Below are positions 2,247 to 17,035 of a stretch of 64,000 bases of DNA, one piece after another (the stretch's first letter is position 1; the number at the start of each line of letters is the position of its first letter). Source of the DNA: Candidatus Thalassarchaeum betae (GTDB lineage Archaea; Thermoplasmatota; Poseidoniia; Poseidoniales; Thalassarchaeaceae). A program made the translations under genes and the position numbers. The stretch lies in contig JAKUUP010000005.1 in assembly GCA_022447095.1 (NCBI GenBank), forward strand, positions 2,065 to 66,064, written 5' to 3'. The notes under the pieces are model-generated. The model saw nothing but the letters and a program-made list of their open reading frames with translations, was not told the DNA's origin and did no database searches.

Positions 2247-4646
2247 GTGCGCCGAGCGTCCGCCAGCCTGCTAATCGCCCTGCTGCTGGTCAGCGCAGCT
2301 CCATTGGCACAGGCCGACTCCAAGGGAGTCATCTCCTGTCTCAACGCAGATCTCACGATGATGCCTGCCAACTGGGATATCGGAAATCAATCCTGCGTCC
2401 GCGTCGACCTCGGAGAACTGGAGCCCGGCGAGACGCTGTCGTTCGACATCACCTCCGACGAACTCATCGACATCCTGCTCTTCTCGGTCAACTCGATTTC
2501 CGTCTACCAGAACGAGCAGGCCTACAGGAGCAACTCAATCTGGGAGAGCGACTCCGTCTTCGAGAGTTTCAACGGCACAGGAGAATGGCACTGGACCGTA
2601 CCCGATGACCGTGACATGACCCGCTGGTACCTCGTTCTTGACAACCTCGCGCATCCACAGGACGGGGGCGGAGGGGCTCAGGGTGGAACTGACGCCTCAG
2701 TCAACCTCGACTCAGGAATCGTCTCACCCGCACCATTCACTCTAGTCGACACCATAGTGCGACTCGAAATCGGAGGACACTCGATACTCCACGGTCCATT
2801 CCTCGTCGACGCAGGCACACAGGTCAGAATCGACGCGACGACGATGGAAGGGGCTCCGGACGTCTTCCTGATGACAGAGTCCCAAGTGGCCCTTTACGAG
2901 GCCGGCGGCACCGCGGCCTCTCGCGTAGAGGGCACCGACATGCTCCTCATCATGACCGAGCGTCACATGGTCTGGCTCGTGCCCGAGACGTACGAGGGCA
3001 CCGATCTCTATCTTGTGGTTGACAACAGGGCAGGTCCGTCAGGAGGCGGCGCCGGGACTCAGGCAATCGCCACCACCGTCACACTCTCACTCACCCCCAT
3101 ACTGGAGCCGACCATCGGAGGAGGAATCTCCCTAGATGTCGTCGACGTGGGAGCCATCATCACCCTAGATGCCTCAGAGACTCCTAACCGCTCCGGCCAG
3201 ATACTCACCTCTGGATTCAAGTGGGACACCAACGCGGACGGTGTCGACGATACTATCGGCTCTACCGTCAACGTCAGTTGGTCAGACCCGACGAACATTA
3301 CCGTCAGACTCACCGTCGTATCCACAGACGGTCGCAGTGCGAGCGTGTATCAGGAAATCGAGGTCAGTGATATCTCCGAACCAGAGGTCAGCATCGGAGT
3401 CACCGCTGTCCTCGAGCGTACCTACGGTGACAACGTCATCCTGAGTGGGCAGGTCAGTGACAACTGGGGAATCGAGACAATCGAGTGGCTCGTCGACGAA
3501 CAACTCGTCCGATCCAATGCCGGAGACGATGAGGGTGCGACAGTATACAGCCACTCATTCGACTCCAGTTATGCGGCTGGGTCCCACACGGTCACCCTCC
3601 GCGCCACTGACCTCTCTGGCAGGGTGGCCGAGGATATCGCCAGCATTACTCTCTACGACTCGACACCTCCAGTGATCGGAATTTTCGTTGACGAGATATC
3701 CCTGCAGATTGGGCAGACATTCCGCTTTGAGGCCAATGTCACTGATGCTGAGTCTAACGACCTTCTCTTCTCTTGGGACTTTGACGACTCGGTCGACTCG
3801 GACGCGGATGGCGACCCTAGGAACGACGCCGACTCCTACGGTGACTCGGTGCTGTGGAGCTATGAGAAATCGGGCCCACAGTCGGTGGTCTGCCACATTG
3901 AGAACGATGCCGGGCTAGTCAGTGAATTCGAGATTCTCGTCAATGTGATGAGCGGCTCCGAAGACGATGGCGACTACGACCTGATGACCATGGGCATGAT
4001 TGGCCTTGCAGCCCTCATCGGCTTGCTTCTCATCGCGATGCTGTCTTGGCGAATCATCTCCAACCGCAGGCTGGCCACTCTTGTAGCACAGCAGGAGGAG
4101 ACCGAGGAAGCACCCACGACCGCTCCATCGGCGGACGAGCAGAAGGCGATGTGGGGCGGAGGGGGCGGCACGGGCGTATCAGTCCCAGAGTCAACCCCTC
4201 AGATTTTCGGCGACGTCTCCGGCGGGATGTCAGGGGTCACCGCTGATATTTCAACAGCGATGGGGGAGCCCGAGGGAGGCGAGATAGACCCCGACATCGC
4301 GGCACTGCTGGAGTCGGCTAGGCAGTCAGAGTCGGAACCTGCTTCCGGTGCCGCCAACGATTTGCTGTCCGCCTTTGAGAGCGACGACACCGTCGAGAGG
4401 GAAGATGTCGAGTTCTCGCACGAAGGAAGAACCGAGGAGGAAACCTCGACATGGGCTCCTGGTGAGGAAGGGGGAGATGTCTTCCAACCGGCCGATGAAA
4501 CGGAGCCCGAGGCGCAGGACCGGACCGTTCGCCAGAACTGCTCATCATGCGAGAAAATGTTCGAAGTCGATCTGCCGGAGGGCGTCGATGCCGCTAGAAC
4601 CGCATGCCCGCATTGCGACTCGATAGAATCGATCAGCCTCGACTGA
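2247..4646 (+). CDS. Large secreted acidic surface protein (type-I membrane topology) with a cytoplasmic C-terminal C4 zinc-ribbon tail
   Basis: Signal peptide MRRASASLLIALLLVSAAPLAQA; ~570-aa acidic ectodomain with Ig/PKD-like beta-rich segments; a single TM (LMTMGMIGLAALIGLLLIAMLSW); ~200-aa acidic tail ending NCSSCEK...ACPHCDS (CxxC-18-CxxC). Confidence 0.7.
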   Translation: MRRASASLLIALLLVSAAPLAQADSKGVISCLNADLTMMPANWDIGNQSCVRVDLGELEPGETLSFDITSDELIDILLFSVNSISVYQNEQAYRSNSIWESDSVFESFNGTGEWHWTVPDDRDMTRWYLVLDNLAHPQDGGGGAQGGTDASVNLDSGIVSPAPFTLVDTIVRLEIGGHSILHGPFLVDAGTQVRIDATTMEGAPDVFLMTESQVALYEAGGTAASRVEGTDMLLIMTERHMVWLVPETYEGTDLYLVVDNRAGPSGGGAGTQAIATTVTLSLTPILEPTIGGGISLDVVDVGAIITLDASETPNRSGQILTSGFKWDTNADGVDDTIGSTVNVSWSDPTNITVRLTVVSTDGRSASVYQEIEVSDISEPEVSIGVTAVLERTYGDNVILSGQVSDNWGIETIEWLVDEQLVRSNAGDDEGATVYSHSFDSSYAAGSHTVTLRATDLSGRVAEDIASITLYDSTPPVIGIFVDEISLQIGQTFRFEANVTDAESNDLLFSWDFDDSVDSDADGDPRNDADSYGDSVLWSYEKSGPQSVVCHIENDAGLVSEFEILVNVMSGSEDDGDYDLMTMGMIGLAALIGLLLIAMLSWRIISNRRLATLVAQQEETEEAPTTAPSADEQKAMWGGGGGTGVSVPESTPQIFGDVSGGMSGVTADISTAMGEPEGGEIDPDIAALLESARQSESEPASGAANDLLSAFESDDTVEREDVEFSHEGRTEEETSTWAPGEEGGDVFQPADETEPEAQDRTVRQNCSSCEKMFEVDLPEGVDAARTACPHCDSIESISLD

Positions 4647-4700
4647 TCCCCTAGTCTACAAACGATGCAGAGGACGTTCCTGTAGGGCAATACCCTATAG

Positions 4701-4719
4701 CGCACCTCTAGGAGGTGCG
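4701..4719 (+). promoter_or_regulatory. Hairpin that sequesters the Shine-Dalgarno sequence of the downstream giant gene
   Basis: cgcacctc-tag-gaggtgcg forms a perfect 8-bp stem. Its 3' arm contains GGAGGTG (a strong SD) 4-10 nt upstream of ATG 4723. Confidence 0.3.
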
Positions 4720-4722
4720 AGC

Positions 4723-7700
4723 ATGACCAGCACCTCTGTACGGCTCGTGCATCGAGCTCCTTCGGTGTCTCATTCACATACCCTAATGATGGTCCTACTC
4801 TTCCTATTCCCCGTCGTTTCACCAATCGCCAGCGTCAGCGGTGAGGCTAGAATAGAATCGCAGGACTTTGAGATTCTAGATCGACTATCGGAAGTATTGG
4901 AGGAGCGACAGGAGGTTCTGGATGGCAACTCCGTTGGGCAGATGGCCGGTCCGACAATCGAAGGCATCAGCAACTCAGTCACTCCTACCGGCTCGGCCGA
5001 TCCCCTCGCAGATGTCGATGGCGCTATCGAAGGGGCGACGATGGTGGTCACGAGACCCCCGGATCCAGTACACCCCGGTCCTTACCAACTCCTCGTCAAT
5101 CCCGGCAATAGTCCTCCCGGACAGGTGGATAACATATGGCAGACTCTGCTGAATATTACCGACTACGTAATCTGGACTCAGTACACCAACCTCGACGGCG
5201 ATGTCATCGAGAGTTTCGAGGTCGTCACATTTTCCTCCAATCTACTGTCGCTCTTGGATGTCAACTCAGATCCGCTTCTGCACGAAGTCGATATCGACAA
5301 CGACGGCGACGAAGACATCGAGGTCGGCCTCAAAATCGCATGGGAGTTCCTTGGCGGCTGGGGTGTCGAAGATGGGGTGCTTTGGATTGAGCCGGGGATA
5401 TCCTACTCGGTCAAGGTTCTGGACTCAAGCCAGAACGACCCAGACTGGGATAACATGGACAAACTCCAGGTCTCCTTGATCAAAGCCTTCGCCTATTCCG
5501 GACCGGACTCCATCCTCGCACTGGGAGAGGGGGAGACCTACATCTGGGTCGTTGATTCCCGATTCACGACCCAGCCCAACGATTTCACACTGAGGGTAGG
5601 GATAGAGAGATTCTACTTCGACGTCACAGGCGCTGGGTCGGACCTCATAGTCACGTTAATCCAGGCCCTTACACTCGGCATCATCAACTCGGGCGTCGAT
5701 GAGTCTGGAATCACTTTCGCATCGATTTCCGCCCCTTATGCCATAGGAATCAGCAATGACGGACAGTCAACCTGCCCCGACCGATACTCGCCGGACGAAC
5801 TGCTGTACGCCTCACACCTAGAACTGAACTGCGGCGTTGCCGCAGGCTTCGGGTACCTACACTTCTCACCACCCGATGACAGTGGAGACAGAGACATGTG
5901 GGAACTCGCTTACATTGAACTCTCACTACACCCCAACAAGGATGCAGTCATACTCCCCGAACAGGTAGAAATCGTCATCAGGACTGATAGTGTTCTGCCA
6001 GAGAATGGATTGGTCGACGGAGAAGATGGTCTGGACACTATCGAGTACTGGGCTGACGAGAGGACTGATCTCCATATCCACTTCCACGAGAACCGTTCTG
6101 AACTCCCTCCAGAGGAGTCCGCAGAAGGTGCTCGAGGCAATGTCACTGACTCCGTCGGCTGGCTACGCGGGATGCCCGCTGGGTCTCTGTCCGAGGGCGA
6201 GATCCAGAGAGTTTTCACGATGCTGGGTTCCGATGGATCGCAGTCGGAATTGCCCGGTGATCTGCCAGAGCGCCTAGGCCTGATTATCGGAATCAAAAAC
6301 TTCTCTCGCGACGACAGTCAGAATGTCAACGACCCAACATTGCCAGTTAATCCGGCCAATCCTCCGAAGACGCTTATTCTACTACGTTCCGTCCAATCCG
6401 TCGAGGAGGTTGATTACGACTCGTGGTTCCTCCGCGAGGGTGCCGTCGACGATCACAGGAAGATCCACATCTCGGCGAGGAACGTGCCTACGGCTGCGGT
6501 CTTATACGGCTCCTTCGAACTGGGAGGCAGCGACGAGGTCGAAACGAGTTTTGATTCGGAGGAAAGTCTGGACTTCGTATCGAAGATTGTGGACAACGTC
6601 CTGATTAACATAGTCGATTTGTTCCTAGACATCGGCAACGTGCTGAATGATGTCCCTTCGGCCGTAGTCGATGTCATCAGCGGCGGTGTCGATGGCACCA
6701 GCGGTCTTGAGGGACGCTCTTTTCACCTCCTGCTCAACGACAACTGGCTCGTCACCCGATCTGACATGCCAATCGACTACATTTCAGTTCAGATAGGCTC
6801 CAGCACCCATCCGGTCTTGCCCGGCGACCATCTGATGCTGGCTAAGGACAACGACCTCGCTACGGTCGATGGCCGCGATGGTCCCGTAGAGCCGCTGGTT
6901 CCGGTAGCGGCCAGCATCAGATTCAGCGGACTGATCGCATTCTCGTTAGTCGATGACAACGATCTCGACGAGCAAACCGTGACACTCCGAACGTCATCGG
7001 ACGAGTCGTTCGGATTCACCTACATCGAACATCCTCCGACTATACTCGAAGGAGCCTCCTACCAATCGCTGATCATGAGTGACATACCCGACAATCTCTC
7101 CACTCACATCACCCCCGAGAGAATGCAATACACGGCCTCGACCGGCATCGATTCAATCGTCTACGCCGGCCTAGATGGAACCCAGCGCCAAGCCGCGCAT
7201 ATCATTGGAGTTCCAGACAGTTTCACCACAACCTTCGGCACAGTAACCGGCTGGTCCTCCCTCACACCGATATCAACCATTGAGGCCCAAGTCAGCAACG
7301 CTTCCGAGCCGGTGACCATGACCGGTGACCACTTCCTGTTTCACCACGACCCGGTCTCCGAGACTTCGACAATCTCGACTAGGCTGACAGGTCTCAGTGA
7401 GGTCAGTTGGACAGCTCCCGACGAGGAAGGCGCTACCGGTCCAGCGGGCCGCGGCACCGCCCATATGTCAGTGGCCGGAGACAGACAACTGAGCATCAGT
7501 GTCGATCATGCACCCACACAAGGCGACGACGCACTATCTGTGCTCGCATCCATCGATCCGCTCCCTTCCTCGGTATCGGTCGAGATACCCACGGGGGCAG
7601 ACGCTGAATCAGCACTCGCAGTCCCAGAGTTCAACACATCCAATGGACTGTCTGGGGTCGCTTTCTTCATCAGTGGGTTCGCCAACCTCGGCCGCTCTGT

Positions 7701-9111
7701 CAACAGCGTCCTCTCAGGGATCACCTCAGACATATCCACGGGTGCCGAGTCCGAGGACGATGGCTTCTCCTTCGGTATCAAATTGAACGCTGACGCCGCT
7801 TTTGATCTCACAGTCGAGGCCATCCATGGAGATAGTTCTGTAGATGCTCCCCCGTGGGTCCACGGCATAGCGTTTCAATCATCACCCAACGGCATAGCAG
7901 ATGGCTTCCACCTCAGGACATGGCTGCCTAACTTGCCTCCGACCATCGACCTCTCAGTCAGCAGAGCACCCAACTTCAACGGTCAGGACTGGGCAATCAG
8001 CATGGGACTCGAGGATTGGGTGCCCGCGCACAGCGAGTTGATGATTCACGCATATGGAATCAACGGCCAGGATATGTTGCTCACTCTACAGGGCCTGAAT
8101 GTGGGTGAGCCAACTTCGCTGCTCATCGATTCGATATTTGAGATTAGGACGACAGGCGGTATCACAGAGGTTGGGACTACGACCCACTACTGGATGTCCA
8201 ATCGACTTGATTGGGTTCACGCCCTATTGATCAACAGGGAAGCCGGCAGTAGAACTGAGATTATGATACATGATATCCCAGAGGCAGTCGACCTGCAGTC
8301 CAGCATCGGAACCGCGGTATCGCTCGACATGACGGTGCCCGAAGAATATCGGCGTGATGGCACCGCAGTAGGGGCCATCATGCTGCAGCAGATGCAGTGG
8401 ATGGAGGATGCCTGGTGGCCTGCGACAGTCTTCCTAACCGATGTGCCCGGTTCGATCAGCCTATCGACGGCACCTGACCTGACTTTCGACATCACGCAGA
8501 ACATAGCCTTCCAAGGATCGCCAGTCCTCGACTTCACGGCCTCCGATGAAGGCATGTCCCTCTACATCGAGGCTTTCGGAAGGGCCATCAACAAGAAGGG
8601 CGACACCATATTACTGGCTCAGGGAATGACCGATAGGATGGAAATCGGTCCTACCAGTGACTTTGGTCTGACCATCAGATCAAGTGGCGAGGGCGTGGAA
8701 AGACTCTATCTCCGTATGAGCAACGTCCCAGCGACTCCGCCCATCGTCCTCGACGAGATGGAGGCCATGGGGGAGAACCTGCGGAAGGCCACCATACACG
8801 TCAGGGAGATTGTAGGACAGTACAGCATCATTGAGGTCGATGACGTGCAGGGCGGGAGAATCATCGCCTCGGCTCGAGCGTCTGCTCAAGTCGAAGGCAC
8901 CGACTGGGACCTCCGAGGTGTTCTACTGGACGCTCAGATAACCGGAGGAGTCCCGACGGGAACCACCCTCGGCGTGAATGGCATGGCTTCCGACTTGTCA
9001 CTATTGAACATGGTTCCGGGACTTGACGGCTCCACGAAGCACGTGATGGTGCCCGAACCTTTCTCCTCTGCGATTCTGACTTTGCTGGCGACTCTACTGG
9101 GGGGTACCTGA
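4723..9111 (+). CDS. Giant (1462-aa) secreted acidic surface protein with a hydrophobic C-terminal anchor preceded by a PEP motif
   Basis: N-terminal hydrophobic signal/anchor (LMMVLLFLFPVVSPIASVSG); very acidic, Asp/Ser/Thr-rich body; C-terminus VPEPFSSAILTLLATLLGGT, which resembles PEP/PEF-CTERM sorting signals. SD GGAGGTG lies upstream. Confidence 0.7.
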   Translation: MTSTSVRLVHRAPSVSHSHTLMMVLLFLFPVVSPIASVSGEARIESQDFEILDRLSEVLEERQEVLDGNSVGQMAGPTIEGISNSVTPTGSADPLADVDGAIEGATMVVTRPPDPVHPGPYQLLVNPGNSPPGQVDNIWQTLLNITDYVIWTQYTNLDGDVIESFEVVTFSSNLLSLLDVNSDPLLHEVDIDNDGDEDIEVGLKIAWEFLGGWGVEDGVLWIEPGISYSVKVLDSSQNDPDWDNMDKLQVSLIKAFAYSGPDSILALGEGETYIWVVDSRFTTQPNDFTLRVGIERFYFDVTGAGSDLIVTLIQALTLGIINSGVDESGITFASISAPYAIGISNDGQSTCPDRYSPDELLYASHLELNCGVAAGFGYLHFSPPDDSGDRDMWELAYIELSLHPNKDAVILPEQVEIVIRTDSVLPENGLVDGEDGLDTIEYWADERTDLHIHFHENRSELPPEESAEGARGNVTDSVGWLRGMPAGSLSEGEIQRVFTMLGSDGSQSELPGDLPERLGLIIGIKNFSRDDSQNVNDPTLPVNPANPPKTLILLRSVQSVEEVDYDSWFLREGAVDDHRKIHISARNVPTAAVLYGSFELGGSDEVETSFDSEESLDFVSKIVDNVLINIVDLFLDIGNVLNDVPSAVVDVISGGVDGTSGLEGRSFHLLLNDNWLVTRSDMPIDYISVQIGSSTHPVLPGDHLMLAKDNDLATVDGRDGPVEPLVPVAASIRFSGLIAFSLVDDNDLDEQTVTLRTSSDESFGFTYIEHPPTILEGASYQSLIMSDIPDNLSTHITPERMQYTASTGIDSIVYAGLDGTQRQAAHIIGVPDSFTTTFGTVTGWSSLTPISTIEAQVSNASEPVTMTGDHFLFHHDPVSETSTISTRLTGLSEVSWTAPDEEGATGPAGRGTAHMSVAGDRQLSISVDHAPTQGDDALSVLASIDPLPSSVSVEIPTGADAESALAVPEFNTSNGLSGVAFFISGFANLGRSVNSVLSGITSDISTGAESEDDGFSFGIKLNADAAFDLTVEAIHGDSSVDAPPWVHGIAFQSSPNGIADGFHLRTWLPNLPPTIDLSVSRAPNFNGQDWAISMGLEDWVPAHSELMIHAYGINGQDMLLTLQGLNVGEPTSLLIDSIFEIRTTGGITEVGTTTHYWMSNRLDWVHALLINREAGSRTEIMIHDIPEAVDLQSSIGTAVSLDMTVPEEYRRDGTAVGAIMLQQMQWMEDAWWPATVFLTDVPGSISLSTAPDLTFDITQNIAFQGSPVLDFTASDEGMSLYIEAFGRAINKKGDTILLAQGMTDRMEIGPTSDFGLTIRSSGEGVERLYLRMSNVPATPPIVLDEMEAMGENLRKATIHVREIVGQYSIIEVDDVQGGRIIASARASAQVEGTDWDLRGVLLDAQITGGVPTGTTLGVNGMASDLSLLNMVPGLDGSTKHVMVPEPFSSAILTLLATLLGGT

Positions 9112-9112
9112 A

Positions 9113-9694
9113 ATGGGTCTGCTGGAGAGATTGAGGCAAGATGGGAGTAATGAGGAGGAAGACGAGAGAATCGCTCATGATGTGCTGGAAAAAATCGAGG
9201 AAGGTGCTAAGGAAATCGAGGAACGTGCTAGGAGACACATCTCACCGACCAGAGTAATCTTCGCTTCAATCGCAGCCATTCTTCTGCTCGCTACGAGCCT
9301 GTTCGTTTTGACGTGGTTAGTCCCGTACGACAGGGTCAGCGTCGATGTGGTGTATCGTCAGGGTGGTCCCGGACACGTCGTGCTGGTAGAACTGGACAAC
9401 AAGGGCAGCAGGACGATCGAGGACATCAATCTGCACATCAGGTTCATTGATTCGAATGGTATCGAAGTCGATCGATCAATTTTCAATAAGGAGTCCTTGC
9501 CGGCGCATACCTCAGTCGCAGGGGACGACCTCGAGCTGCTCGTCAACGGGACTTCGGTATGGGAGAATTACACAATCGAGATACTGCTGAACTACGAGTA
9601 CTATGGAGGCGATCGCTCCGAGCGTTGGACCCACGATGTAGGAGAGTGGACGATGGAGATGTTCGTCGACAAGTCGCCGTACCGCTTCCTCTGA
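9113..9694 (+). CDS. Small bitopic membrane protein, translationally coupled to the giant gene
   Basis: Starts 2 nt after the upstream stop codon. Acidic N-terminus, one TM (VIFASIAAILLLATSLFVLTWLV), and a beta-rich C-terminal domain. Confidence 0.5.
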   Translation: MGLLERLRQDGSNEEEDERIAHDVLEKIEEGAKEIEERARRHISPTRVIFASIAAILLLATSLFVLTWLVPYDRVSVDVVYRQGGPGHVVLVELDNKGSRTIEDINLHIRFIDSNGIEVDRSIFNKESLPAHTSVAGDDLELLVNGTSVWENYTIEILLNYEYYGGDRSERWTHDVGEWTMEMFVDKSPYRFL

Positions 9695-9744
9695 GCAGTA
9701 TCAAGCATGACTATTGATGGGTTCAAAGAACCCATACGCTCAAA

Positions 9745-12700
9745 TTGGTTACGAGAAGGCGAGAGCCGATGACAAAGCGTTCAGTCTCAGTCGTGATGGC
9801 GGTTTTGTTACTTTCATACCTGCCTATTCTCGACCAGTCATCGTCCTATGAAAACTCCCCCGAAGAGGGCTTGGCACTGGATTCCGCAGTGGAGAGAATA
9901 GAGATATCTCCAGACCCTAACAGCATCCAGAACCTTGGCGCTCCAAACATCTACTCGGGCTATGAGGACATCCGTTCCCTCCGTGCTGACTCAACGATTG
10001 GAGTCTACACCGGGGCCGGACTCCTTCCCGGTGTCGCGATGAGCTCTAAATTGGCCGAGACGCGCTCCGATCTGGCTATCGTCCTAGTCGATGGTGAGGC
10101 CGGCCTCTGGGATGCCAGACAGGAGATCCTAGATGCAGTCGAAGTCGAGATAAGGTCTACCATCCCACCATCGGGATTCCTCGTCCAAGGTTCCCCCGGA
10201 CAACTCGCTGAGTTGACTCGCATCTCCGTGGTCAGCGCCGTACACGATGTCCCAGCCGGACTGTTGGTGCACCCGATGTTCTGGGAGGCTAATGGAGATG
10301 AGACCATCCTCGTTGAGGTACTCGGCTGGAAGGACTCCGAACTCATTCGTCACAGCGAGCCCGGACTAGGCTTGGACGACTCGCTCAGCATCGCTGCCTC
10401 GCTATGGCTCGAAGAGGCATGGTCGCCCGAGCAAGGTAGGATTTGGGGTGAGATTGGTATCAGCGATATCTCTCAGATTGTCAGGCATCCATCGGTGGCT
10501 TACGTGGCACCGCTGCCATTGCTGATGCTACATAACGACGAGGCCCGTGACCACATGGGAATCAACACCGTGGATAACACCTTCATCACCGGGCTAAACG
10601 GCAGCGGACAGAAGATAGCCGTAGGCGACTCCGGACTCGACAACGATCATGGTGACTTCACCGGTAGAGTCTCGGGGCTGACATCTGTCACTCCAGGCGA
10701 CTCATCCACCGCAGATCCTTCTGACGGGCACGGAACTCACGTTGCCTGCACCGTCCTCGGTGATGGCTACCGCAGTAGTGGGACCTACCAAGGAATCGCT
10801 CCAGAGGCCCTGCTTTACTTCCAGGCGATGGAGGATGACGACACCGGAGCCCTCTACAGTTATGGCATCAACAGCATGCTTAACTCGGCCTACAACAACG
10901 GTGCTCGCTTACACACCAACAGTTGGGGCGCAGGCAGTGGTTCAGGCAGCTACTCAACTCAGTCCGAGGACGCCGACGACCGCACCTCTACCTGGGACCA
11001 GTACTGGTCTTACCAAGGGATGACGGTGTTGTTCGCCGCTGGTAACGAGGGCAACGACGGGGTCTCCCCTCCAGGCACCGCGAAGAACGTCATCACCATC
11101 GGCGCCCATCAGAACCGATACAGCGGCGCTCCGGACGATATGTACTACTGGAGCAGCCGCGGACCGACCGACGATGGCAGGATCAAGCCGGATCTGGTCG
11201 CCCCGGGAGAATACGTTCGCTCTTGTAAGGCTCAGGAGGCGCAGGACGCAGAAGGCTCTTGGAGCAACAACTGGTATCTTGAATATACAGGGACATCGAT
11301 GGCAACGCCAGCAGCGGCCGGTGCCGCCGTCCTCGTCAGAGAGTACCTGATGGAGGTCGCTGGCAGACAGGCCCCTCAGAGTGCCCTCGTCAAGGGACTG
11401 CTAATCCTAGGTGCCATGGACATGGGCACCCGGGACATCCCCAACAACAACGAGGGTTGGGGAAGGGTCAATCTGGTCGACTCGCTAATTCCAGACAACG
11501 ATGTCGGCATATTCGTGGATGACCGCTCACGCCTCTCCAGCGGGCAGGTGAGCGAGTACACCTTCGACGTCACCCGCGCCGGCGAGCCGATGAAGGTGGT
11601 TCTGACTTGGTCCGACTACCCCGGCTCTTCATCCTCCTCAAGCCAACTCAGAAACGACCTCGACCTAGAGGTGATTTCGCCTAACGGGCAGGTCACATAC
11701 AAGGGGAACGCCTTCGTCAACGGCCACTCAGTCACTGGCGGTACCAAGGACTCCACCAACAACGTAGAAGTCGTCCTGATGGATAACGCCGCGACCGGCA
11801 CGTGGACAGTCCGCGTGCGCGATGCGCAGCATGGTGGTGGGCGTACATGGCAACCCTACGCGCTCGCAGTCCGTGGAGTGAACGTGAACGACCTGACCCC
11901 CGACCCAGCATTCGTACAGAACTCATTCGAGATTACCTCTGCGATTCCACAGGTCGGCGAGGAGGTCGATGTCACTGTGACTGTTCAGAACCTAGGTGCC
12001 GGTTCCGTAGCCGAAGTCGCTGTGATTGCAAGAGCCGACAGTGAACTACTCGGTACTCAAACTCTGAGCATGTCCCCAGGAGAGTCTGCCGAGTTGTCTT
12101 GGAACTGGACCCCCGACCATGAGGGAGAGGTGGAGTTCACTTTCCACATCGACCCGAGCGATACGGTAGAGGAGACCTCGGAATCGAACAACTACTTGTC
12201 ACAGACGGTGGTGGTCAGCGCACCTGGGGTTCGCGTTACCACCGAGCAGGACACCATGACGCTGGCAGATGCGACCGACAGTTCGACGACTTGGGAGTTG
12301 TTCCTGATGAACACGGCTCTGTTTGAGACCAACGCCTCCATTGTCGTCACCGATCCCGTGCGAGTACAGGACGGCGTCGAGTTCGACTGGTTCACATCTT
12401 TCACCTCGAATACCTTCAACCTCGAAGCCGCCGAGATGACAACCATTGGCCTGACGGTAGTCCATCCGGCCCCACCTCCGCCCGGCCTCTATCGGATGGT
12501 GGTGACCGGGACCGACATTGAGAACGATATCGATTCTGAACTGATGCTCTACTTCGAGGTCCCGATACTGGCTGAGGCCGACATAGTCCTCCCCGGAGAG
12601 CAGTTCCTAGTCAGTCCACTCGAGCCGACAGATCTCCAGATACTGGTCTTCAACGATGGCAACGGTGCTCAGGCCTACGATGTCGAACTCGTCTCCCCTG

Positions 12701-14271
12701 CTGGCTGGCACCTCGGTCTAGATACTCTCGGGGCCTTCGCAGGCTCCTCGCACGGCTCCACAGGCACGCTCGCAAAGGACGCCGGCCGGGCCGTTGACAT
12801 CACAATCAACCCACCGGGCGCGATGATTCCAGCCGACTCTGTCTACGACGCGGCCATCATAGTCCACTCTCGTGTAAGCTCCGACTCCTGGAGTGCAGAC
12901 ATCCAATTAGTCGTCAAGGTGATAGACCAAGTCAGTACCACTCCCTCATCAGATGGCATTGAGCATGACATCGCACCTGATGCTCTTCTGGAGTTTGAGA
13001 TTGAGTTCAACAACCAAGGCAACCGCTTGATAGTCTTCCAACCTTATGTGAGGAGCATTCCTGGTGGCTGGGAAGTCTTAGGCGGTCTGTACCCAGCCCA
13101 CGTCCCAGCCGGTGAGACAGCAGTTTGGCCGGTCTCCCTGCAAGGCAACGGTGTAGCGGTCAGCGGCGATCTTCAATTGAGGTTCGCGACCGAGGACGGC
13201 TACTACGTGGATTGGAACAGGACCTTGGACGTTCTATCCGGAGCCATGCCGACTTTGGATTTCCACCTTGTCGCCCTCCCGGATGGAACCACCGCCGATT
13301 ACCCGCTTGGAGTGCCCGCTCATCCAGTCGGGGCACCGGGGTTCGATCTCGGTTGGACGGTTACCAACGAAGGCTCCACCACATGGCGTCCTATGACCTA
13401 CATGGAAGTGCCTAACGATGATTGGTCTTCGACGTGCGTCGGTCCATCCACCCTCTCCGCCGGTGCCACTTCTACGGTCTGGTGCACCGTCGTCATCCCA
13501 CTGTCAGCCGAAGCCAACTCCGAGCCGATTGTGACTCTGGTAATGGAGGGCGAGGGAGTTGAGGTGAGTGACTCAATCTCGCTGTTGGTCGAGTCCGTAG
13601 CCCGAGTGAGTTGGACCGTCACCAACCAGCAGGTCGCACATGAGGGCTACGAGACCGTGCTCTACCTCGACCTTCAGAATGTCGGCAACTCGGATATCGC
13701 CCATGTCCTGCAAGCCTCTGGTCCGGATGATTGGAACGCACTGATTCTCGATGGGGTGGTTGTCAATCTGCGCCCTGGCGAGACGCGCAATCTCCAACTC
13801 GGATTCACACCCAACACTGGGGTGGATGGAACACTAGTGGTGGAACTCGGTGATTCCAACGATATCGAGGACTCCACCTTCACCATAGAGATCGACGTGC
13901 TGCCAGCGAGGATAGAGGAGGGCATGTCCGCTCTCGAGATGGTACTTGTTGCAACCCTCATCCTCGCCTTCGCCGGAGGAGTCGGATTCTTCGTTTACTC
14001 TAGGACTGGAGCCGATAAGGCCAGTCTGATCAAAACTGAGACACTCAGCAAGATTGCGGACAGCTTCGGGCTTGCCGAGGAGGAGAGAGTGGAGGGCAGC
14101 GGCGTTCCCTGCTGGATATGCAGCCAAGACATCGTCCTCGGCGGGGCGTGGGCTTGCTCTGAGTGCGGAGCGAGGTATCACAAGGGTGGCCAGGTCGATG
14201 GCTGTGACATCGTTTCGATGGGACACTGCATGCACTGCGATGCCGACGTGGACGGGCTTGTAGAAGCGTGA
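9745..14271 (+). CDS. Membrane-anchored subtilisin-like serine protease (peptidase S8) with beta-sandwich repeat domains and a cytoplasmic Cys/His-rich zinc-binding tail
   Basis: Signal peptide. Catalytic triad motifs in order: Asp (AVGDSGLDNDHGDF), His (DGHGTHVACTVLGDG), Ser (GTSMATPAAAGAAVLV). Post-catalytic VLTWSDYPG...NDLDLEV beta-sandwich. CARDB-like repeats, TM (LEMVLVATLILAFAGGVGFFVY), and a tail with CWIC, CSEC, C-x7-CMHC. Confidence 0.85.
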   Translation: MVTRRREPMTKRSVSVVMAVLLLSYLPILDQSSSYENSPEEGLALDSAVERIEISPDPNSIQNLGAPNIYSGYEDIRSLRADSTIGVYTGAGLLPGVAMSSKLAETRSDLAIVLVDGEAGLWDARQEILDAVEVEIRSTIPPSGFLVQGSPGQLAELTRISVVSAVHDVPAGLLVHPMFWEANGDETILVEVLGWKDSELIRHSEPGLGLDDSLSIAASLWLEEAWSPEQGRIWGEIGISDISQIVRHPSVAYVAPLPLLMLHNDEARDHMGINTVDNTFITGLNGSGQKIAVGDSGLDNDHGDFTGRVSGLTSVTPGDSSTADPSDGHGTHVACTVLGDGYRSSGTYQGIAPEALLYFQAMEDDDTGALYSYGINSMLNSAYNNGARLHTNSWGAGSGSGSYSTQSEDADDRTSTWDQYWSYQGMTVLFAAGNEGNDGVSPPGTAKNVITIGAHQNRYSGAPDDMYYWSSRGPTDDGRIKPDLVAPGEYVRSCKAQEAQDAEGSWSNNWYLEYTGTSMATPAAAGAAVLVREYLMEVAGRQAPQSALVKGLLILGAMDMGTRDIPNNNEGWGRVNLVDSLIPDNDVGIFVDDRSRLSSGQVSEYTFDVTRAGEPMKVVLTWSDYPGSSSSSSQLRNDLDLEVISPNGQVTYKGNAFVNGHSVTGGTKDSTNNVEVVLMDNAATGTWTVRVRDAQHGGGRTWQPYALAVRGVNVNDLTPDPAFVQNSFEITSAIPQVGEEVDVTVTVQNLGAGSVAEVAVIARADSELLGTQTLSMSPGESAELSWNWTPDHEGEVEFTFHIDPSDTVEETSESNNYLSQTVVVSAPGVRVTTEQDTMTLADATDSSTTWELFLMNTALFETNASIVVTDPVRVQDGVEFDWFTSFTSNTFNLEAAEMTTIGLTVVHPAPPPPGLYRMVVTGTDIENDIDSELMLYFEVPILAEADIVLPGEQFLVSPLEPTDLQILVFNDGNGAQAYDVELVSPAGWHLGLDTLGAFAGSSHGSTGTLAKDAGRAVDITINPPGAMIPADSVYDAAIIVHSRVSSDSWSADIQLVVKVIDQVSTTPSSDGIEHDIAPDALLEFEIEFNNQGNRLIVFQPYVRSIPGGWEVLGGLYPAHVPAGETAVWPVSLQGNGVAVSGDLQLRFATEDGYYVDWNRTLDVLSGAMPTLDFHLVALPDGTTADYPLGVPAHPVGAPGFDLGWTVTNEGSTTWRPMTYMEVPNDDWSSTCVGPSTLSAGATSTVWCTVVIPLSAEANSEPIVTLVMEGEGVEVSDSISLLVESVARVSWTVTNQQVAHEGYETVLYLDLQNVGNSDIAHVLQASGPDDWNALILDGVVVNLRPGETRNLQLGFTPNTGVDGTLVVELGDSNDIEDSTFTIEIDVLPARIEEGMSALEMVLVATLILAFAGGVGFFVYSRTGADKASLIKTETLSKIADSFGLAEEERVEGSGVPCWICSQDIVLGGAWACSECGARYHKGGQVDGCDIVSMGHCMHCDADVDGLVEA

Positions 14272-14277
14272 TTGAAC

Positions 14278-14297
14278 CGCGACCCTAAGGGGTCGCG
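14278..14297 (+). terminator. Perfect hairpin (8-bp stem cgcgaccc/gggtcgcg, loop taag) 7 nt after the subtilase stop
   Basis: Inverted repeat seen directly in the 67-nt intergenic spacer. Confidence 0.35.
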
Positions 14298-14338
14298 ATG
14301 CCCGAAGTCCTTAGAGGGGCGATTGAGTCGGAGCGACG

Positions 14339-17035
14339 ATGAAGCGTGATTCATCGGCCTCTGTGCTGACGGCTTTGCTGCTATTGACTATCATGTCACC
14401 ACTAGCCACCGCTGCAGTCTCAGTGTCGCTTTCTGCGAGTCCGACGGCCCAAGAGGCCACCACCGATGACGATGCAGAGTACGACATCATCGTGACTAAC
14501 GACGGCGATGAGGATATCTCGGTCACTTTGAGCACCCAGCAGGGTAACGACTGTAACGGCTTTTCATCCTCTTTGGACTCCTATCAGGTCTCAGTCGATG
14601 AGGGGACATCTGAGACGGTCGTACTGACTGTCTCTGTGAATGACCAGGCAGACGGTGACTGCGAGACCACCGTAAACGCTCAGGCTACAGCAGGTATCGG
14701 ATCGCCGGCCAACGACGATGTTACGGTAACCACGACTGCTGGTGACGGAGGCGGCCTATACTCGGTGAAACTCACTACCGACGAGCAGATGAAGACCTAC
14801 GGGGGCGAGGATAGCGATGAGGGCGATAGCGTTGCCTGGGATGTCGAAGTGGAGAACAATGGCGAGCAGCAGGCCAACGTCCAACTCGAGATGATATCAG
14901 ACAGCGATTGCGAGTCCGACACCCTCGATGCCACTGTGGATCCACAGGTCCTGCAGTTGGAGCCGGAGGACAAAGAGACCGTCGAGGTCACAGTCGAAGT
15001 TCCTGACGGTAGTTCCACCGAGGCAGGAGACCACTGCTTCATCCTCAGAGCAACGGTGACCAACGACCCTAACGCAGCAGATCAGGCTGAGGACAATATC
15101 ACACTCACTCTGAAGATTCCTGAGCGCAAGGAGTGCGACCCGAACCTCCAGTACACCTCACACAACCTCGACCCCGATGAATCTGCGACCAATTCCTTTG
15201 AGGTCGAGAATATCGGCAACACCGAGTGGACGGTGACGGCAAACGCCCAAGCCCATGATTCGGACCACGACATAACTGACTGGATAGACTTCAACAGCCC
15301 ACTCAGCAAACTGCTCTCCGAGCCCGGAGGCTCTCAGGACGGCCATACGTTCACCTTCTCAGTCACCCCTGACGACTCGGTCGAGTCGGGAACCCAAGTG
15401 GGTATCAGGATACAGGGGCGTGCTGGTACCGCTGTGGGCTGCGAGCAAACGCTCACTGTCACCGTGGGCCAGAGCCACGCCGCTACTATGACCCTGAGCA
15501 AGAACAAACTCTCAAACGTCGAACCAGGGAGCTCAGAAACGGTTTCGGTTCAGATAACCAACCTCGGCAACGGGATGGAAACTCTCTCAGTAGGCGCCAC
15601 AGGACTGCCTCCTGGCTGGCAGATATCCTTCTCCCAGAATTCGGTCACCGTAGGAAGCGTGCACTCCGGCAACAACAGGCAGACCATCAACGCCGAGGTC
15701 TTCGTGCCCGAGGATGCCAGCGCCGAGGATGAGACGGTGATCACCTTCACAGTCGGACGCGGCGGCGGCACCACTCCTTACGACACCAAGGACCTCACAG
15801 TTTCCGTCGCTGCCCGACATGACCTGACCACTTCGATCCTGTCGACCCAGCAGACGGGCCGCTCAGGGCAGACGGTGCAGTTCCCAATAGATGTCACCAA
15901 CTCGGGTAACATCCGTGACACCTTCAAACTCCTGACTTGCGACCCAGGTGACCAGACTGGATGCAACCAGCCGATGTGGGAATCATCCTACTCCGATAGT
16001 CAGGGCAACACGATCACGCAGGTAATCCTTGACCCCAGTCAGACTCAGACAGTGTACCTCGACATCCTCGTCGAGGGTGAGGAGGAGGCCGATTCAGCGA
16101 ACGTGCTCGCTCGAATCGCGATATACGGTACAACTGTAGTGGACGAGCATACTGTGAGCGTAATAGTCTCAAACTACAACTACGCCATGGCGATCACTGC
16201 GCAGAATCCTGGTGATATCCCTGATCAGATTGATGCTACTCTCCCACCAGGAGGCACCCTGACCACTGCATTCTGGGTCGAGAATACCGGTGATTACCCC
16301 GGTGGCGATACTGCCGTGATATCATTGAGCGGCATGGAGTCGTCAGTACTGCGGACAATTACCGTTGAGGGGGTGGAGATCGAGAGTACACTCTCTCTGG
16401 GAATGGGCGAGAGAGTGCTCATTGAAGTAGAGATAGAGATTCTCGATGGCGTGGCGAATGGCGTTTCTGGGGTAGTAAAAGTCAGCGCTTCATCAGAGAA
16501 GAACACTGCCCAGAGCACCTCAGTCGACCTGATTGTCGCAGTCATGACCATCCATGATCTCAGATTCACCCTTGAGGGAGAGGACGAGCAGACCGCAGAG
16601 TATCCAGACAAGGCCATCTTCATCTTGTATGTCACCAATCACGGCAACATACTCGAGACAGTACAGGTCCTGTCCAGTGAGTCACTCAGGGGTTGGTCGG
16701 TCGATGTGGTAGGTGAGGAGTTTGAACTTGAATCGGGGGAGACTCGGGAAGTCGAAGTGAGAGTCACTCCACCTAGCGATTTGCTTGATGATGACACCTA
16801 TCTTTTCACTCTGACCGTGCAGCCGGAAGACCTTGCTGTGGCAGGTCAGCCAATTGACCTGACAGTGATATCGGAGATGCCATCGTCGTTCATCGGCTTG
16901 ACTGAGGAGCAGGCTCAGGCACTGGTCTACGGCTCCATCATTCTCGGTGGGATTCTGGTCGTCGTCCTGTTCTTTCGTTCCCGCGCTGAAAATCGCAGAA
17001 TCGTGGAAGCGCTCGAAAATGAGTTCGAAGACTAG
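14339..17035 (+). CDS. Secreted cell-surface protein built from ~8 CARDB-like (NxGN) beta-sandwich modules, with a C-terminal TM anchor
   Basis: Signal peptide MKRDSSASVLTALLLLTIMSPLATAAV. Recurrent motifs VTNDGDEDI, VENNGEQQA, VENIGNTEW, ITNLGNGMET, VTNSGNIRDT, VENTGDYPG, VTNHGNILET. C-terminal TM (LVYGSIILGGILVVVLFF) and a short tail. Confidence 0.75.
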   Translation: MKRDSSASVLTALLLLTIMSPLATAAVSVSLSASPTAQEATTDDDAEYDIIVTNDGDEDISVTLSTQQGNDCNGFSSSLDSYQVSVDEGTSETVVLTVSVNDQADGDCETTVNAQATAGIGSPANDDVTVTTTAGDGGGLYSVKLTTDEQMKTYGGEDSDEGDSVAWDVEVENNGEQQANVQLEMISDSDCESDTLDATVDPQVLQLEPEDKETVEVTVEVPDGSSTEAGDHCFILRATVTNDPNAADQAEDNITLTLKIPERKECDPNLQYTSHNLDPDESATNSFEVENIGNTEWTVTANAQAHDSDHDITDWIDFNSPLSKLLSEPGGSQDGHTFTFSVTPDDSVESGTQVGIRIQGRAGTAVGCEQTLTVTVGQSHAATMTLSKNKLSNVEPGSSETVSVQITNLGNGMETLSVGATGLPPGWQISFSQNSVTVGSVHSGNNRQTINAEVFVPEDASAEDETVITFTVGRGGGTTPYDTKDLTVSVAARHDLTTSILSTQQTGRSGQTVQFPIDVTNSGNIRDTFKLLTCDPGDQTGCNQPMWESSYSDSQGNTITQVILDPSQTQTVYLDILVEGEEEADSANVLARIAIYGTTVVDEHTVSVIVSNYNYAMAITAQNPGDIPDQIDATLPPGGTLTTAFWVENTGDYPGGDTAVISLSGMESSVLRTITVEGVEIESTLSLGMGERVLIEVEIEILDGVANGVSGVVKVSASSEKNTAQSTSVDLIVAVMTIHDLRFTLEGEDEQTAEYPDKAIFILYVTNHGNILETVQVLSSESLRGWSVDVVGEEFELESGETREVEVRVTPPSDLLDDDTYLFTLTVQPEDLAVAGQPIDLTVISEMPSSFIGLTEEQAQALVYGSIILGGILVVVLFFRSRAENRRIVEALENEFED

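Follow-up and report, generated by a model that had tools for sequence, protein, structure and literature searches.

A surface-anchored subtilase of the Poseidoniales with a predicted RING-like two-zinc tail

The surface-gene cluster and the anchored subtilase

Marine Group II archaea (Poseidoniales; MGII) are among the most abundant archaea of the surface ocean, are uncultured, and are thought to degrade proteins and polysaccharides (PMC9258230). The window analyzed here is a stretch of 64,000 nucleotides from one of them, Candidatus Thalassarchaeum betae (GCA_022447095.1, contig JAKUUP010000005.1). It carries a cluster of five surface-protein genes upstream of nuo, and in the 56 Poseidoniales loci compared the order of the cluster is invariant and the subtilase gene always lies within it. 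The features of the cluster are as follows.

2247 to 4646, plus strand: first cluster gene, with a signal peptide, an ectodomain with Pfam PKD_4 and Big_7 matches, a TM helix (residues 581-599) and an acidic cytoplasmic linker of about 165 aa
4539 to 4616, plus strand: C4 zinc ribbon ending the first cluster gene, C765 to C790 (from CxxC positions; zinc binding predicted)
4723 to 9694, plus strand: two genes, for a 1462-aa secreted protein and a 193-aa type-II membrane protein (open reading frames)
9769 to 14271, plus strand: membrane-anchored S8 subtilase, full coding sequence (from the list of open reading frames; the frame opens with TTG at 9745)
9769 to 9834, plus strand: N-terminal signal peptide (MTKRSVSVVMAVLLLSYLPIL...), a hydrophobic peak after basic residues that is kept in orthologues
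10600 to 11463, plus strand: Peptidase_S8 catalytic domain, residues 286-573 (Pfam PF00082, E = 1e-42, 146.8 bits)
11641 to 11829, plus strand: P-domain-like beta-sandwich, residues 633-695 (Pfam P_proprotein, marginal: 21.8 bits, cut-off 21)
11929 to 12201, plus strand: CARDB domain, residues 729-819 (Pfam PF07705, E = 2.9e-19)
12202 to 13914, plus strand: extracellular stalk, residues 820-1390, of apparent, putatively Ig-like repeats
13933 to 14001, plus strand: single TM helix, residues 1397-1419, LEMVLVATLILAFAGGVGFFVYS (Kyte-Doolittle mean 2.45)
14002 to 14100, plus strand: putative cytoplasmic linker, residues 1420-1452, with the motif KIADS[FL]GL and an acidic run
14101 to 14268, plus strand: predicted C4HC3 two-zinc RING-like domain, residues 1453-1508, with ligands C1456, C1459, C1471, C1474, H1479, C1487, C1495 and C1498
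14339 to 17035, plus strand: 898-aa Ig-rich surface protein with a C-terminal TM helix, choice-of-anchor T family (NCBIfam NF041740)

The reading frame of the subtilase (9745 to 14271, plus strand) is unbroken and gives 1508 aa when counted from the TTG. Given that orthologues align from residue 9, the true start is probably the ATG at 9769 (M9, 'MTKRSVSVVMAVLLLSYLPIL'); a start motif, M-x-KR-[ST]-V, is common to 44 full-length orthologues. The protein of about 1,500 aa thus comprises a signal peptide, an S8 domain, a P-domain-like segment, a CARDB domain, an Ig-like stalk, one TM helix and an 89-aa tail.

The preliminary description had recognized an S8 subtilase, and both the Pfam match and the motifs bear this out. 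The PF00082 match exceeds its cut-off (21.8 bits) and covers the whole profile (1-288), and the catalytic triad is intact and in order, with D295 (DSG), H329 (HGTH) and S518 (GTSMA), so that an active enzyme is predicted. Conservation along the protein also peaks in the S8 domain, with a majority frequency of 0.90 and 182 of 288 columns invariant among 45 sequences (the window protein and 44 orthologues). Conservation in the stalk is 0.67-0.75; the stalk of the window protein is without a Pfam match, and orthologous fragments have NPCBM_assoc matches there.

The TM helix is the sole 19-residue window with a Kyte-Doolittle mean above 1.8, and is flanked by acidic residues before and R/K after it. 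The signal peptide is the second-highest hydrophobic peak (2.75 in an 11-residue window). From a conserved N-terminal signal peptide followed by one C-terminal TM helix we infer a type-I membrane topology with the tail in the cytoplasm, in agreement with the anchor and cytoplasmic tail first proposed for this gene. The linker between the helix and the zinc domain is on the whole poorly conserved (0.50), its KIADS motif is at least 90% conserved in close orthologues, and its pLDDT in the AlphaFold model is below 55.

This order of domains resembles that of the furin/kexin convertases, eukaryotic proteins in which a signal peptide, an S8 domain, a P-domain and further domains are followed by one TM helix and a non-catalytic cytoplasmic tail. 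The P_proprotein match of the subtilase just clears its cut-off. Furin tails carry short unstructured sorting motifs and no zinc domain, and the subtilase differs further in a stalk built of CARDB and apparent Ig-like repeats.

The genes for the 1462-aa protein, which has no Pfam match, and the 193-aa protein are collinear in 47 of 56 and 49 of 56 loci, which is every locus whose contig extends there. The 898-aa protein is S-layer-like, scores 81.6 bits against the NF041740 cut-off of 70, and its gene is collinear in 54 of 56 loci. The first cluster gene had been described as a mirror of the subtilase. The two do share a layout of signal peptide, ectodomain, TM helix and predicted cytoplasmic zinc-binding tail, but their zinc modules differ, since the first gene ends in a single C4 ribbon after its long acidic linker. 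This ribbon is kept in all 34 loci that reach the end of that gene.

Translation, ligands and distribution of the tail

Seven of the 11 Cys of the protein fall within 43 residues (1456-1498; hypergeometric p = 2.8e-9), and this clustering is not of chance origin. In the MAG L001 (GCA_045559695), the tail is annotated as its own 157-aa ORF overlapping the end of a 1362-aa S8 ORF, as would be expected if the Cys-rich stretch came from a frameshift, read-through or a separate small gene and lay outside the protease. The frame there shifts by one base within a G-run, which accounts for the split; the window and at least 44 other genomes have a single ORF of about 1,500 aa that spans TM helix and tail. 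Across the 56 tail codons in 54 orthologous loci, 1190 differences are synonymous versus 829 non-synonymous, and changes number 1758 at the third codon position versus 612 and 491 at the other two. This pattern is contrary to an artefact and indicates that the tail is translated and under purifying selection in the frame of the 9745 to 14271 ORF. With the uninterrupted ORF, the G-run, the orthologues and the codon pattern all speaking against it, we regard an artefactual origin as ruled out to near certainty. The stop codon lies at 14269-14271, and therefore the Cys-rich part precedes the real stop, which disposes of the concern that it might lie beyond it.

The tail contains the motifs that had been noted in it, namely CWIC, CSEC, a further C and CMHC, together with three His (C1456, C1459, C1471, C1474, H1479, C1487, H1494, C1495, H1497 and C1498; nt 14110-14238). 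Exactly eight of these positions are invariant among 18 diverse family members, in the pattern C-x2-C-x10-11-C-x2-C-GAR(Y)H-x5-7-C-x7-C-x2-C (C4HC3), and the same eight are invariant in the 56 loci. The G-A-R-(Y) signature is kept alongside the ligands across the 18 members. Most orthologues have N or R at the position of H1494, and H1497, invariant in close orthologues, gives way to N, S, R or G in the more distant members of the family. Thus, of the Cys7/His3 composition originally given for the tail, the seven Cys stand, but H1479 is the only conserved His and the other two are lineage-specific, which makes it Cys7/His1. Eight invariant positions are nevertheless enough for two predicted zinc sites, as had been suggested.

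Loss of the tail from orthologues would have refuted the original description, and was not seen: the tail and its Cys pattern are kept, on the same gene of about 1,500 aa, in 56 of 56 species-representative loci of the Poseidoniales. Conservation is 0.78 in the tail versus 0.50 in the TM helix and linker. A tail-bearing gene with the same synteny is also found on two more divergent long-read contigs. An exhaustive search of 1.84 billion representatives with a tail profile gave 41 matches. Matches in multiple stretches were rejected as spurious, being Cys-rich repeats in KRAB/C2H2 zinc fingers, Bacteroidetes T9SS repeat proteins and a topoisomerase zinc ribbon. The 12 single-stretch C-terminal matches that were tested are all collinear with the C-terminal half of the subtilase, including the ectodomain, and two of them sit in the same synteny; on these grounds we take them to be orthologues. 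A word-indexed search with a wider profile added only short fragments. Within this search of 1.84 billion representatives, the tail domain was found on no other type of protein.

Predicted fold of the tail

AlphaFold modeled the tail with a pLDDT of 85.2 (82-85 in all five models). Fold matches to the model point to an interleaved cross-brace of RING type that would hold two zinc ions, an arrangement shared by RING, U-box and ZZ domains, in preference to a pair of separate zinc ribbons; the pairing of ligands was deduced from these matches. Of the double zinc ribbon or treble-clef-like structure originally proposed, the two predicted sites are retained, but independent ribbons are not what the fold matches suggest.

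Some observations favor a double zinc ribbon, with sequential sites C1456/C1459/C1471/C1474 and H1479/C1487/C1495/C1498, that would serve as a fast-folding plug to fix the topology or as a generic binding module. DZR (PF12773), a short Cys-rich two-zinc module like the tail, is the most consistent weak Pfam match, found below threshold in 18 of 18 members (best E = 2.4e-5; for the window tail, E = 0.0016 and 19 bits, the cut-off being 27.3). The first four Cys (C-x2-C-x11-C-x2-C) have the short spacing typical of zinc ribbons, rubredoxin-type folds are among the Foldseek matches and score nearly as high as RINGs, and a plain zinc ribbon ends the neighboring gene. Bacterial and archaeal membrane proteins often carry DZR modules. 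However, DZR has four knuckles in tandem, whereas the tail has three CxxC knuckles and an H...C pair in a fold predicted to be interleaved, and we consider a double ribbon rather unlikely.

Known zinc-finger patterns fit the tail in part. RING spacing is C-x2-C-x9-39-C-x1-3-H-x2-3-C-x2-C-x4-48-C-x2-C, PHD fingers have ...C-x2-4-C-x4-5-H-x2-C..., and the C1 pattern is H-x12-C-x2-C-x13-14-C-x2-C-x4-H-x2-C-x7-C. In the tail (C-x2-C-x10-11-C-x2-C-x4-H-x5-7-C-x7-C-x2-C), ligands 1 to 5 are spaced as in PHD and C1, and the H-x5-7-C gap between ligands 5 and 6 matches no canonical RING, PHD or C1 pattern. Could the tail instead be a lipid-binding module of the C1, FYVE or PHD type, sensing or stabilizing lipids of the inner leaflet around the anchor? 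The C1 domain of GEF-H1 is the best PDB sequence-profile match (E = 0.005), and C1_1 (PF00130) was matched below threshold in 15 of 18 members (13.7-15.7 bits against a cut-off of 26.5). The domain also lies within about 35 residues of the membrane, and its conserved Arg-Tyr pair might touch head groups. C1 domains have a His ligand upstream of the first Cys, and the 18 diverse members share no conserved His at such a place. We give a lipid-binding role little credence.

The closest relatives suggested by sequence are the small RING fingers of Aigarchaeota. With hhalign, the tail aligned to four aigarchaeal RING sequences over 47 columns with a probability of 96.8% and a score of 47.5, against 10.5 +/- 2.4 for column-shuffled controls and 14.4 +/- 4.3 for controls in which the ligand columns were fixed; none of 200 ligand-fixed controls reached the real score. 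The aigarchaeal srfp and apparently membrane-anchored RINGs (Caldiarchaeum/pSL4) have in common with the tail the order C-x2-C-x11-C-x2-C-G-A-x-[FY/M]-H ... C-x2-C (C4HC3) and the 'CGAxxH' signature, and in some pSL4 members, as in the subtilase, the finger is at the C-terminus of an apparent membrane protein. We therefore propose that the tail is probably a divergent relative of these fingers. It differs from them in that their ligand 6 comes two residues after the His and opens a Trp-containing E2-binding helix, whereas the tail has x5-7 and no Trp, and in that their linchpin Arg/Lys is not conserved in the tail. None of the four aigarchaeal sequences compared has a protease or other ectodomain.

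C4HC3 has been described as the typical ligand set of prokaryotic RINGs (PMC11354881), and Prok-RING_1 (PF14446) shares it with the tail. This model matched 17 of 18 members below threshold (best E = 6.6e-5). On the window tail it scores 14.7 bits against a gathering cut-off of 29.1 and aligns over only the first half of the model (positions 4-32 of 54); by the Pfam criterion, then, the tail falls outside this family. No Pfam or NCBIfam model scored above threshold on the tail; zf-C3HC4_3 and zf_RING-like matched only 2-3 members. Foldseek against the PDB gave nothing at E <= 0.001, and a PDB sequence search with the tail alone gave only noise (E >= 0.9). In the PDB sequence-profile search, the RING-CH of KSHV K3 (E = 0.04) has the same 'CWIC' first knuckle as the tail.

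Possible roles of the tail

The predicted fold and the kinship to aigarchaeal fingers raise the question of whether the tail is a working RING-type E3, which would recruit an E2- or E1-like enzyme charged with a ubiquitin-like (Ub-like) protein, SAMP or Urm1, and mark the protease or nearby membrane proteins for turnover in the manner of eukaryotic TM-RING ligases. A member of the aigarchaeal group, from C. subterraneum, is a demonstrated E3 (PMC5654768), and some aigarchaeal RINGs (Grau-Bove supplement) are C-terminal to long hydrophobic N-terminal regions, read as membrane-anchored. The tail domain is at the extreme C-terminus and has a conserved hydrophobic end. This is also the arrangement in RNF4, BIRC7 and MDM2, dimeric RING E3s that are among the matches to the tail.

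The C. subterraneum E3 requires I30, W58 and R69 (PMC5654768). The Ile of 'CWIC' occupies the position of I30, before ligand 2, in the window protein and throughout the 56 close orthologues, in keeping with a ligase, but across the wider family this residue is S, A, N, T, V, L or M. There is no Trp after ligand 6 that would correspond to W58, the helix reading 'DIVSMG' or variants, and the residue after C8, the equivalent of the linchpin R69, is D in the window and D, G, Q, R, S or E in the family. Since the residues through which RING E3s recruit an E2 are not kept, the tail is most likely no ligase of ubiquitin-like proteins.

The genomic setting also argues against a ligase. Archaeal srfp genes, including those for aigarchaeal RINGs, sit in Ub/E1/E2 operons (PMC5654768), whereas the subtilase gene lies in a surface-protein cluster beside nuo. 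Surface-protein genes and nuo flank the cluster in every locus, and the syntenic loci hold no Ub, E1, E2 or JAB gene. Nor did a Pfam scan of 16 ORFs of the window, reaching up to 39 kb, find one; the other ORFs of the nuo region were viewed as translated termini. Judging by titles and abstracts, the papers retrieved that mention both Poseidoniales and ubiquitin describe no such system in them. 'RINGv' and RING matches reported earlier for an MGII single-cell genome (PMC4327156, supplement) are unrelated proteins, seemingly AT-rich and eukaryote- or virus-like, and lend the ligase no weight. Taken together, we hold a functional E3 to be improbable.

A bolder version deserves mention. Eukaryotic TM-RING ligases, such as the PA-TM-RING proteins (RNF13/GRAIL/RMR) and the MARCH RING-CH proteins, have the same layout as the subtilase, with an outer domain, one TM helix and a cytosolic two-zinc finger of RING type. 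They are eukaryotic or viral, their ligands follow the canonical RING-H2 or RING-CH spacing, and their binding of E2 enzymes is proven. To our knowledge, where they have an ectodomain it is a non-catalytic PA domain and never an active subtilase; the Pfam scan found no PA domain in the subtilase protein. One could imagine a receptor-like device of Marine Group II, 'ectodomain, TM helix, RING', in which a functional, dimerizing RING-type ligase or adaptor inside the cell is joined to an extracellular protease. If so, events at the surface (substrate load, damage, mis-assembly of the protease) would be coupled to modification or degradation inside, and the eukaryotic TM-RING ligases would have in this protein a prokaryotic counterpart or forerunner. 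We know of no ubiquitin system in this lineage, and consider such a device more doubtful still than a ligase as such.

The reading that we favor, by a modest measure, is a type-I anchored surface subtilase whose cytoplasmic C4HC3 two-zinc tail serves as a docking or dimerization knob. The active S8 protease would be held outside the cell on its long Ig-like stalk, with one helix through the membrane and the last 56 residues folded in the cytoplasm around two zinc ions. As a rigid, zinc-stabilized knob, the tail may link the protease, on the cytoplasmic side of the membrane, either with itself or with partner proteins, for which the zinc ribbon that ends the first cluster gene and the N-terminal tail of the 193-aa protein are candidates. 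In this way it could control the assembly, positioning or turnover of the conserved five-protein surface module. The docking or dimerization role is one that we infer by elimination and analogy.

In public records the protein is named 'S8 family serine peptidase' or 'hypothetical protein', and neither the record names nor the literature retrieved mention the tail or the five-gene module. The combination suggested by these sequences, a RING-like two-zinc finger joined through the membrane to a protease predicted to be active, was not found described. Given that the gene is single-copy, strongly conserved and syntenic across the order, the subtilase is a good candidate for the main cell-bound protease of the Poseidoniales. 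With this putative member, the small set of archaeal RING-like fingers now extends outside Aigarchaeota and Asgard archaea. Were the tail a ligase, it would bear on the pre-eukaryotic history of RING signaling; if it docks partners or dimerizes, it may provide a handle on how the surface proteolytic machinery of these archaea is assembled and controlled.

The subtilase gene and its surface cluster

Five surface-protein genes (window 2247-17035) form a cluster in which the subtilase gene stands fourth. A survey of one genome per GTDB species gave 56 orthologous loci, and the order of the cluster is constant in 56/56 as far as the contigs reach, as well as in two more divergent long-read contigs. 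The complex I operon (nuoABCD) lies directly downstream. The cluster looks like a conserved cell-envelope module.

Genes of the surface cluster (window coordinates, strand, product)
2247-4646, +, gene 1: signal peptide, PKD/Ig ectodomain, TM helix (residues 581-599), acidic linker of ~165 aa, C4 zinc ribbon
4723-9111, +, gene 2: secreted protein of 1462 aa, no match in Pfam or NCBIfam
9113-9694, +, gene 3: 193-aa type-II membrane protein with a charged cytoplasmic N-terminus of 42 aa
9769-14271, +, gene 4: the subtilase
14339-17035, +, gene 5: 898-aa Ig-rich protein of the choice-of-anchor T family, C-terminal TM helix

Gene 5 scores 81.6 bits against the NCBIfam 'choice-of-anchor T' model (threshold 70) and matches the PACE-CTERM 'putative S-layer protein' model below threshold, and its product may belong to the envelope or the S-layer. 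The last residues of the gene 2 protein (window 9040-9111, '...MVPEPFSSAILTLLATLLGGT') form a short motif and, after it, a terminal hydrophobic helix, an arrangement that we presume to resemble a PEP/PEF-CTERM-type sorting signal; no Pfam or NCBIfam model matched this end.

The subtilase is encoded by a single unbroken ORF on the + strand, from 9745 to 14271 (1508 codons when a TTG is taken as the first, the numbering used for residues here). Given that 44 full-length orthologues share a Met at codon 9, with 'x-KR-[ST]-V' and then hydrophobic residues behind it, the ATG at 9769 is most likely the true start, rather than the mechanical TTG (window 9745-9768), and the N-terminus is then a signal peptide.

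Domains of the subtilase (residues, strand, assignment)
286-573, +, Peptidase_S8 (Pfam, E = 1e-42)
633-695, +, P-domain (Pfam, marginal match)
729-819, +, CARDB (Pfam)
1397-1419 (nt 13933-14001), +, TM helix, the sole strong hydrophobic segment apart from the signal peptide

The triad motifs DSG, HGTH and GTSMA are all intact. The protein looks like an active S8 protease; it has a signal peptide, one TM helix near the C-terminus and a conserved tail with eight ligands. The protease domain is borne on a stalk of ~570 residues (820-1390) that is predicted to be Ig-like. Acidic residues precede the TM helix and R/K residues follow it, and a type-I topology with the protease outside is predicted.

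Gene 1 had been described as mirroring this arrangement. The layout is indeed alike, but the domain type differs: a C4 zinc ribbon (window 4539-4616, 'RTVRQNCSSCEKMFEVDLPEGVDAARTACPHC') behind a probably disordered, highly acidic linker, as against the eight-ligand tail of the subtilase. Since the ribbon consensus 'RTVRxxCSxCxxxFEVxxPxGxxxA[RK]TxCPHCxS[IV]E' is kept in 34/34 loci that reach that far, two proteins of one conserved surface module would present different zinc modules to the cytoplasm.

Elsewhere in the window, an ORF of 993 aa that lacks a TM helix (42838-45819, - strand) contains, at residues 876-900 close to its C-terminus, a CLNC...CSSC pair. GC content is uniform (0.54-0.61), the large ORFs within the first ~37.8 kb of the window are mostly on the + strand, and housekeeping genes include eIF-1A, RIO kinase, acyl-CoA carboxylase subunits and seryl-tRNA synthetase. 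No tRNA genes were detected in the 64 kb.

Ligands and conservation of the C-terminal tail

The 89 residues that follow the TM helix contain C1456, C1459, C1471, C1474, H1479, C1487, H1494, C1495, H1497 and C1498 (nt 14110-14238), just as the preliminary description had listed them, and 7/11 Cys of the protein sit within 43 residues (hypergeometric p = 2.8e-9). Across 18 diverse family members, exactly eight ligand positions and a G-A-R-(Y) signature are invariant, in the pattern C-x2-C-x10-11-C-x2-C-G-A-R-Y-H-x5-7-C-x7-C-x2-C. Seven Cys and one His are thus conserved, but the other two His are not a family-wide feature, so the 'Cys7/His3' originally proposed should read 'Cys7/His1'. With this C4HC3 set, two zinc ions could each be bound in a tetrahedral site.

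With the last 118 residues as query, matches came solely from Marine Group II (MGII) proteins (Poseidoniales, Thalassarchaeum) with an identical Cys pattern. Among the 56 loci, 54 are labelled Poseidoniales, MGII or generic archaeal; the other two (L046 and L050) are labelled as Chloroflexota and Gammaproteobacteria MAGs, yet their synteny is identical. The nearest locus, also Ca. Thalassarchaeum betae, has a tail 93% identical. At every locus with an uncut contig the tail ends an ORF of ~1,500 aa, except at L010, where the open frame before the stop is merely 227 codons. In L001 (GCA_045559695, Ca. Thalassarchaeum sp.), a one-base frame change within a G-run at about 10020-10035 splits the subtilase into ORFs of 1362 and 157 aa, the latter carrying the tail; the gene is a pseudogene there unless the change stems from a sequencing error. 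Frame breaks of the same kind are numerous in the long-read contigs L061 and L062.

Regional conservation in 45 full-length proteins (the window protein and 44 orthologues): majority-residue frequency, invariant columns
S8 domain: 0.90, 182/288
Zn tail (residues 1453-1508): 0.78, 23/56
TM helix: 0.53, 1/22
Linker between TM helix and Zn tail: 0.50, 0/33

Compared with 54 orthologues, the 56 tail codons show 1190 synonymous and 829 non-synonymous changes, with third positions predominating. The tail is therefore translated in the subtilase frame and is under purifying selection. It is present in the orthologues, and the frame is unbroken to 14271, so the Cys-rich region lies inside the ORF rather than beyond the real stop.

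Fold and distribution of the tail

No curated Pfam profile reached threshold on the tail in any of the 18 members tested, and no NCBIfam model matched it.

Sub-threshold Pfam matches of the tail (members matched, best E, window tail score, cut-off)
DZR: 18/18, 2.4e-5, 19 bits, 27.3
Prok-RING_1: 17/18, 6.6e-5, 14.7 bits, 29.1
C1_1: 15/18, 0.011, 13.7 bits, 26.5

Marginal matches in a PDB sequence-profile search were the GEF-H1 C1 domain (E = 0.005), the KSHV K3 RING-CH (E = 0.04) and the MDM2 and TRIM37 RINGs. Less likely readings of the tail than a RING-like finger are a tandem double zinc ribbon serving as a passive plug and a lipid-binding C1-like module. The AlphaFold model of the tail has a pLDDT of 72 with a shallow alignment and 85.2 with a diverse one (five models, all 82-85). 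Its order of elements is a knuckle, a beta-hairpin with ligands 3-5, a short helix after ligand 6, a second knuckle and a C-terminal strand, which matches the RING layout. From the structural matches of this model we deduce that ligand pairing would be interleaved, and a cross-brace fold is predicted. Structural matches include the ZZ domains of Ada2 and RSC8, the U-boxes of Prp19 and CHIP, and the RINGs of BIRC7, TRAF6, RNF4 and RING1B; the Foldseek ranking concurs, with rubredoxins scoring slightly lower and no match at E <= 0.001.

Searching 1.84 billion representative proteins exhaustively with a profile returned 41 matches. Those with many stretches are spurious and align to C2H2 fingers and other Cys-rich repeats. 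Every single-stretch match is a C-terminal tail behind a TM helix. The 12 that were tested are collinear with the C-terminal half of the window protein, including the ectodomain (20-32% identity), and two on long contigs share the gene order (S8, tail, 898-aa homologue, nuo); on these grounds we regard the single-stretch matches as divergent orthologues. The same search found the domain on no other protein type. The finger forms a separate family, uncaptured by curated models and restricted to this one orthologous group.

Relation to archaeal RINGs and possible role

Prokaryotic RINGs are typically C4HC3 (PMC11354881). Aigarchaeal (pSL4 / Caldiarchaeum-type) RINGs have the pattern C-x2-C-x11-C-x2-C-G-A-x-F-H-x2-C...C-x2-C, and in some the finger terminates the protein behind long, hydrophobic N-terminal regions (PMC4327156, Grau-Bove et al., supplement), which we read as putative membrane anchors. 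Profile-profile comparison of the tail family with four of these RINGs gave Prob 96.8% and a score of 47.5 over 47 columns. Cys-rich patterns inflate such scores, so two shuffle controls were run: shuffling all template columns gave 10.5 +/- 2.4 (maximum 20), and keeping the ligand columns while shuffling the rest gave 14.4 +/- 4.3 (maximum 33.4), with 0/200 at the real score. The likeness therefore exceeds the ligand pattern. A 'RINGv' described from an MGII single-cell genome is a different, unrelated protein.

The small RING finger protein (srfp) of C. subterraneum is a demonstrated E3, and its activity requires I30, which precedes ligand 2, W58 in the central helix and the linchpin residue R69 (PMC5654768). 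In the tail family, the position ahead of ligand 2 is Ile in 56/56 close orthologues and S/A/N/T/V/L/M in the wider family, no member among the close orthologues and diverse sequences has a Trp after ligand 6, and ligand 8 is followed by Asp in the window tail and by varying residues in others. Archaeal srfp genes lie within Ub/E1/E2 operons, whereas the subtilase gene lies outside such an operon at the window locus and syntenic loci. Given that the E2-contact residues are not kept family-wide and that such an operon is absent from these loci, we consider ligase function improbable.

The tail is more probably a rigid docking or dimerisation knob at the cytoplasmic face, given that selection on it is as strong as on most of the ectodomain, that it lacks conserved E2-binding determinants, and that it keeps a constant extreme C-terminal position, where its hydrophobic end ([FL]-[VI]-x-[AVG], 10 residues past ligand 8) is conserved. 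Among the structural matches, RNF4, BIRC7, cIAP and MDM2 have C-terminal RINGs that use such an arrangement to dimerise. Candidate partners would be another copy of the protease, the gene 1 product through its zinc-ribbon tail, or the 193-aa protein of gene 3 through its N-terminal tail.

Taken singly, the subtilase, the TM anchor and the RING-like binuclear finger are of known kinds; we found no description in the literature of an active ecto-protease, a TM helix and a cytoplasmic RING-like finger in combination. The closest analogies are presumably the eukaryotic PA-TM-RING ligases and furin-type convertases. The tail is well established, taxonomically important and structurally suggestive, and the function that we infer for it, coupling to the candidate partners named above, would give control over how the surface module is assembled, spaced or turned over.
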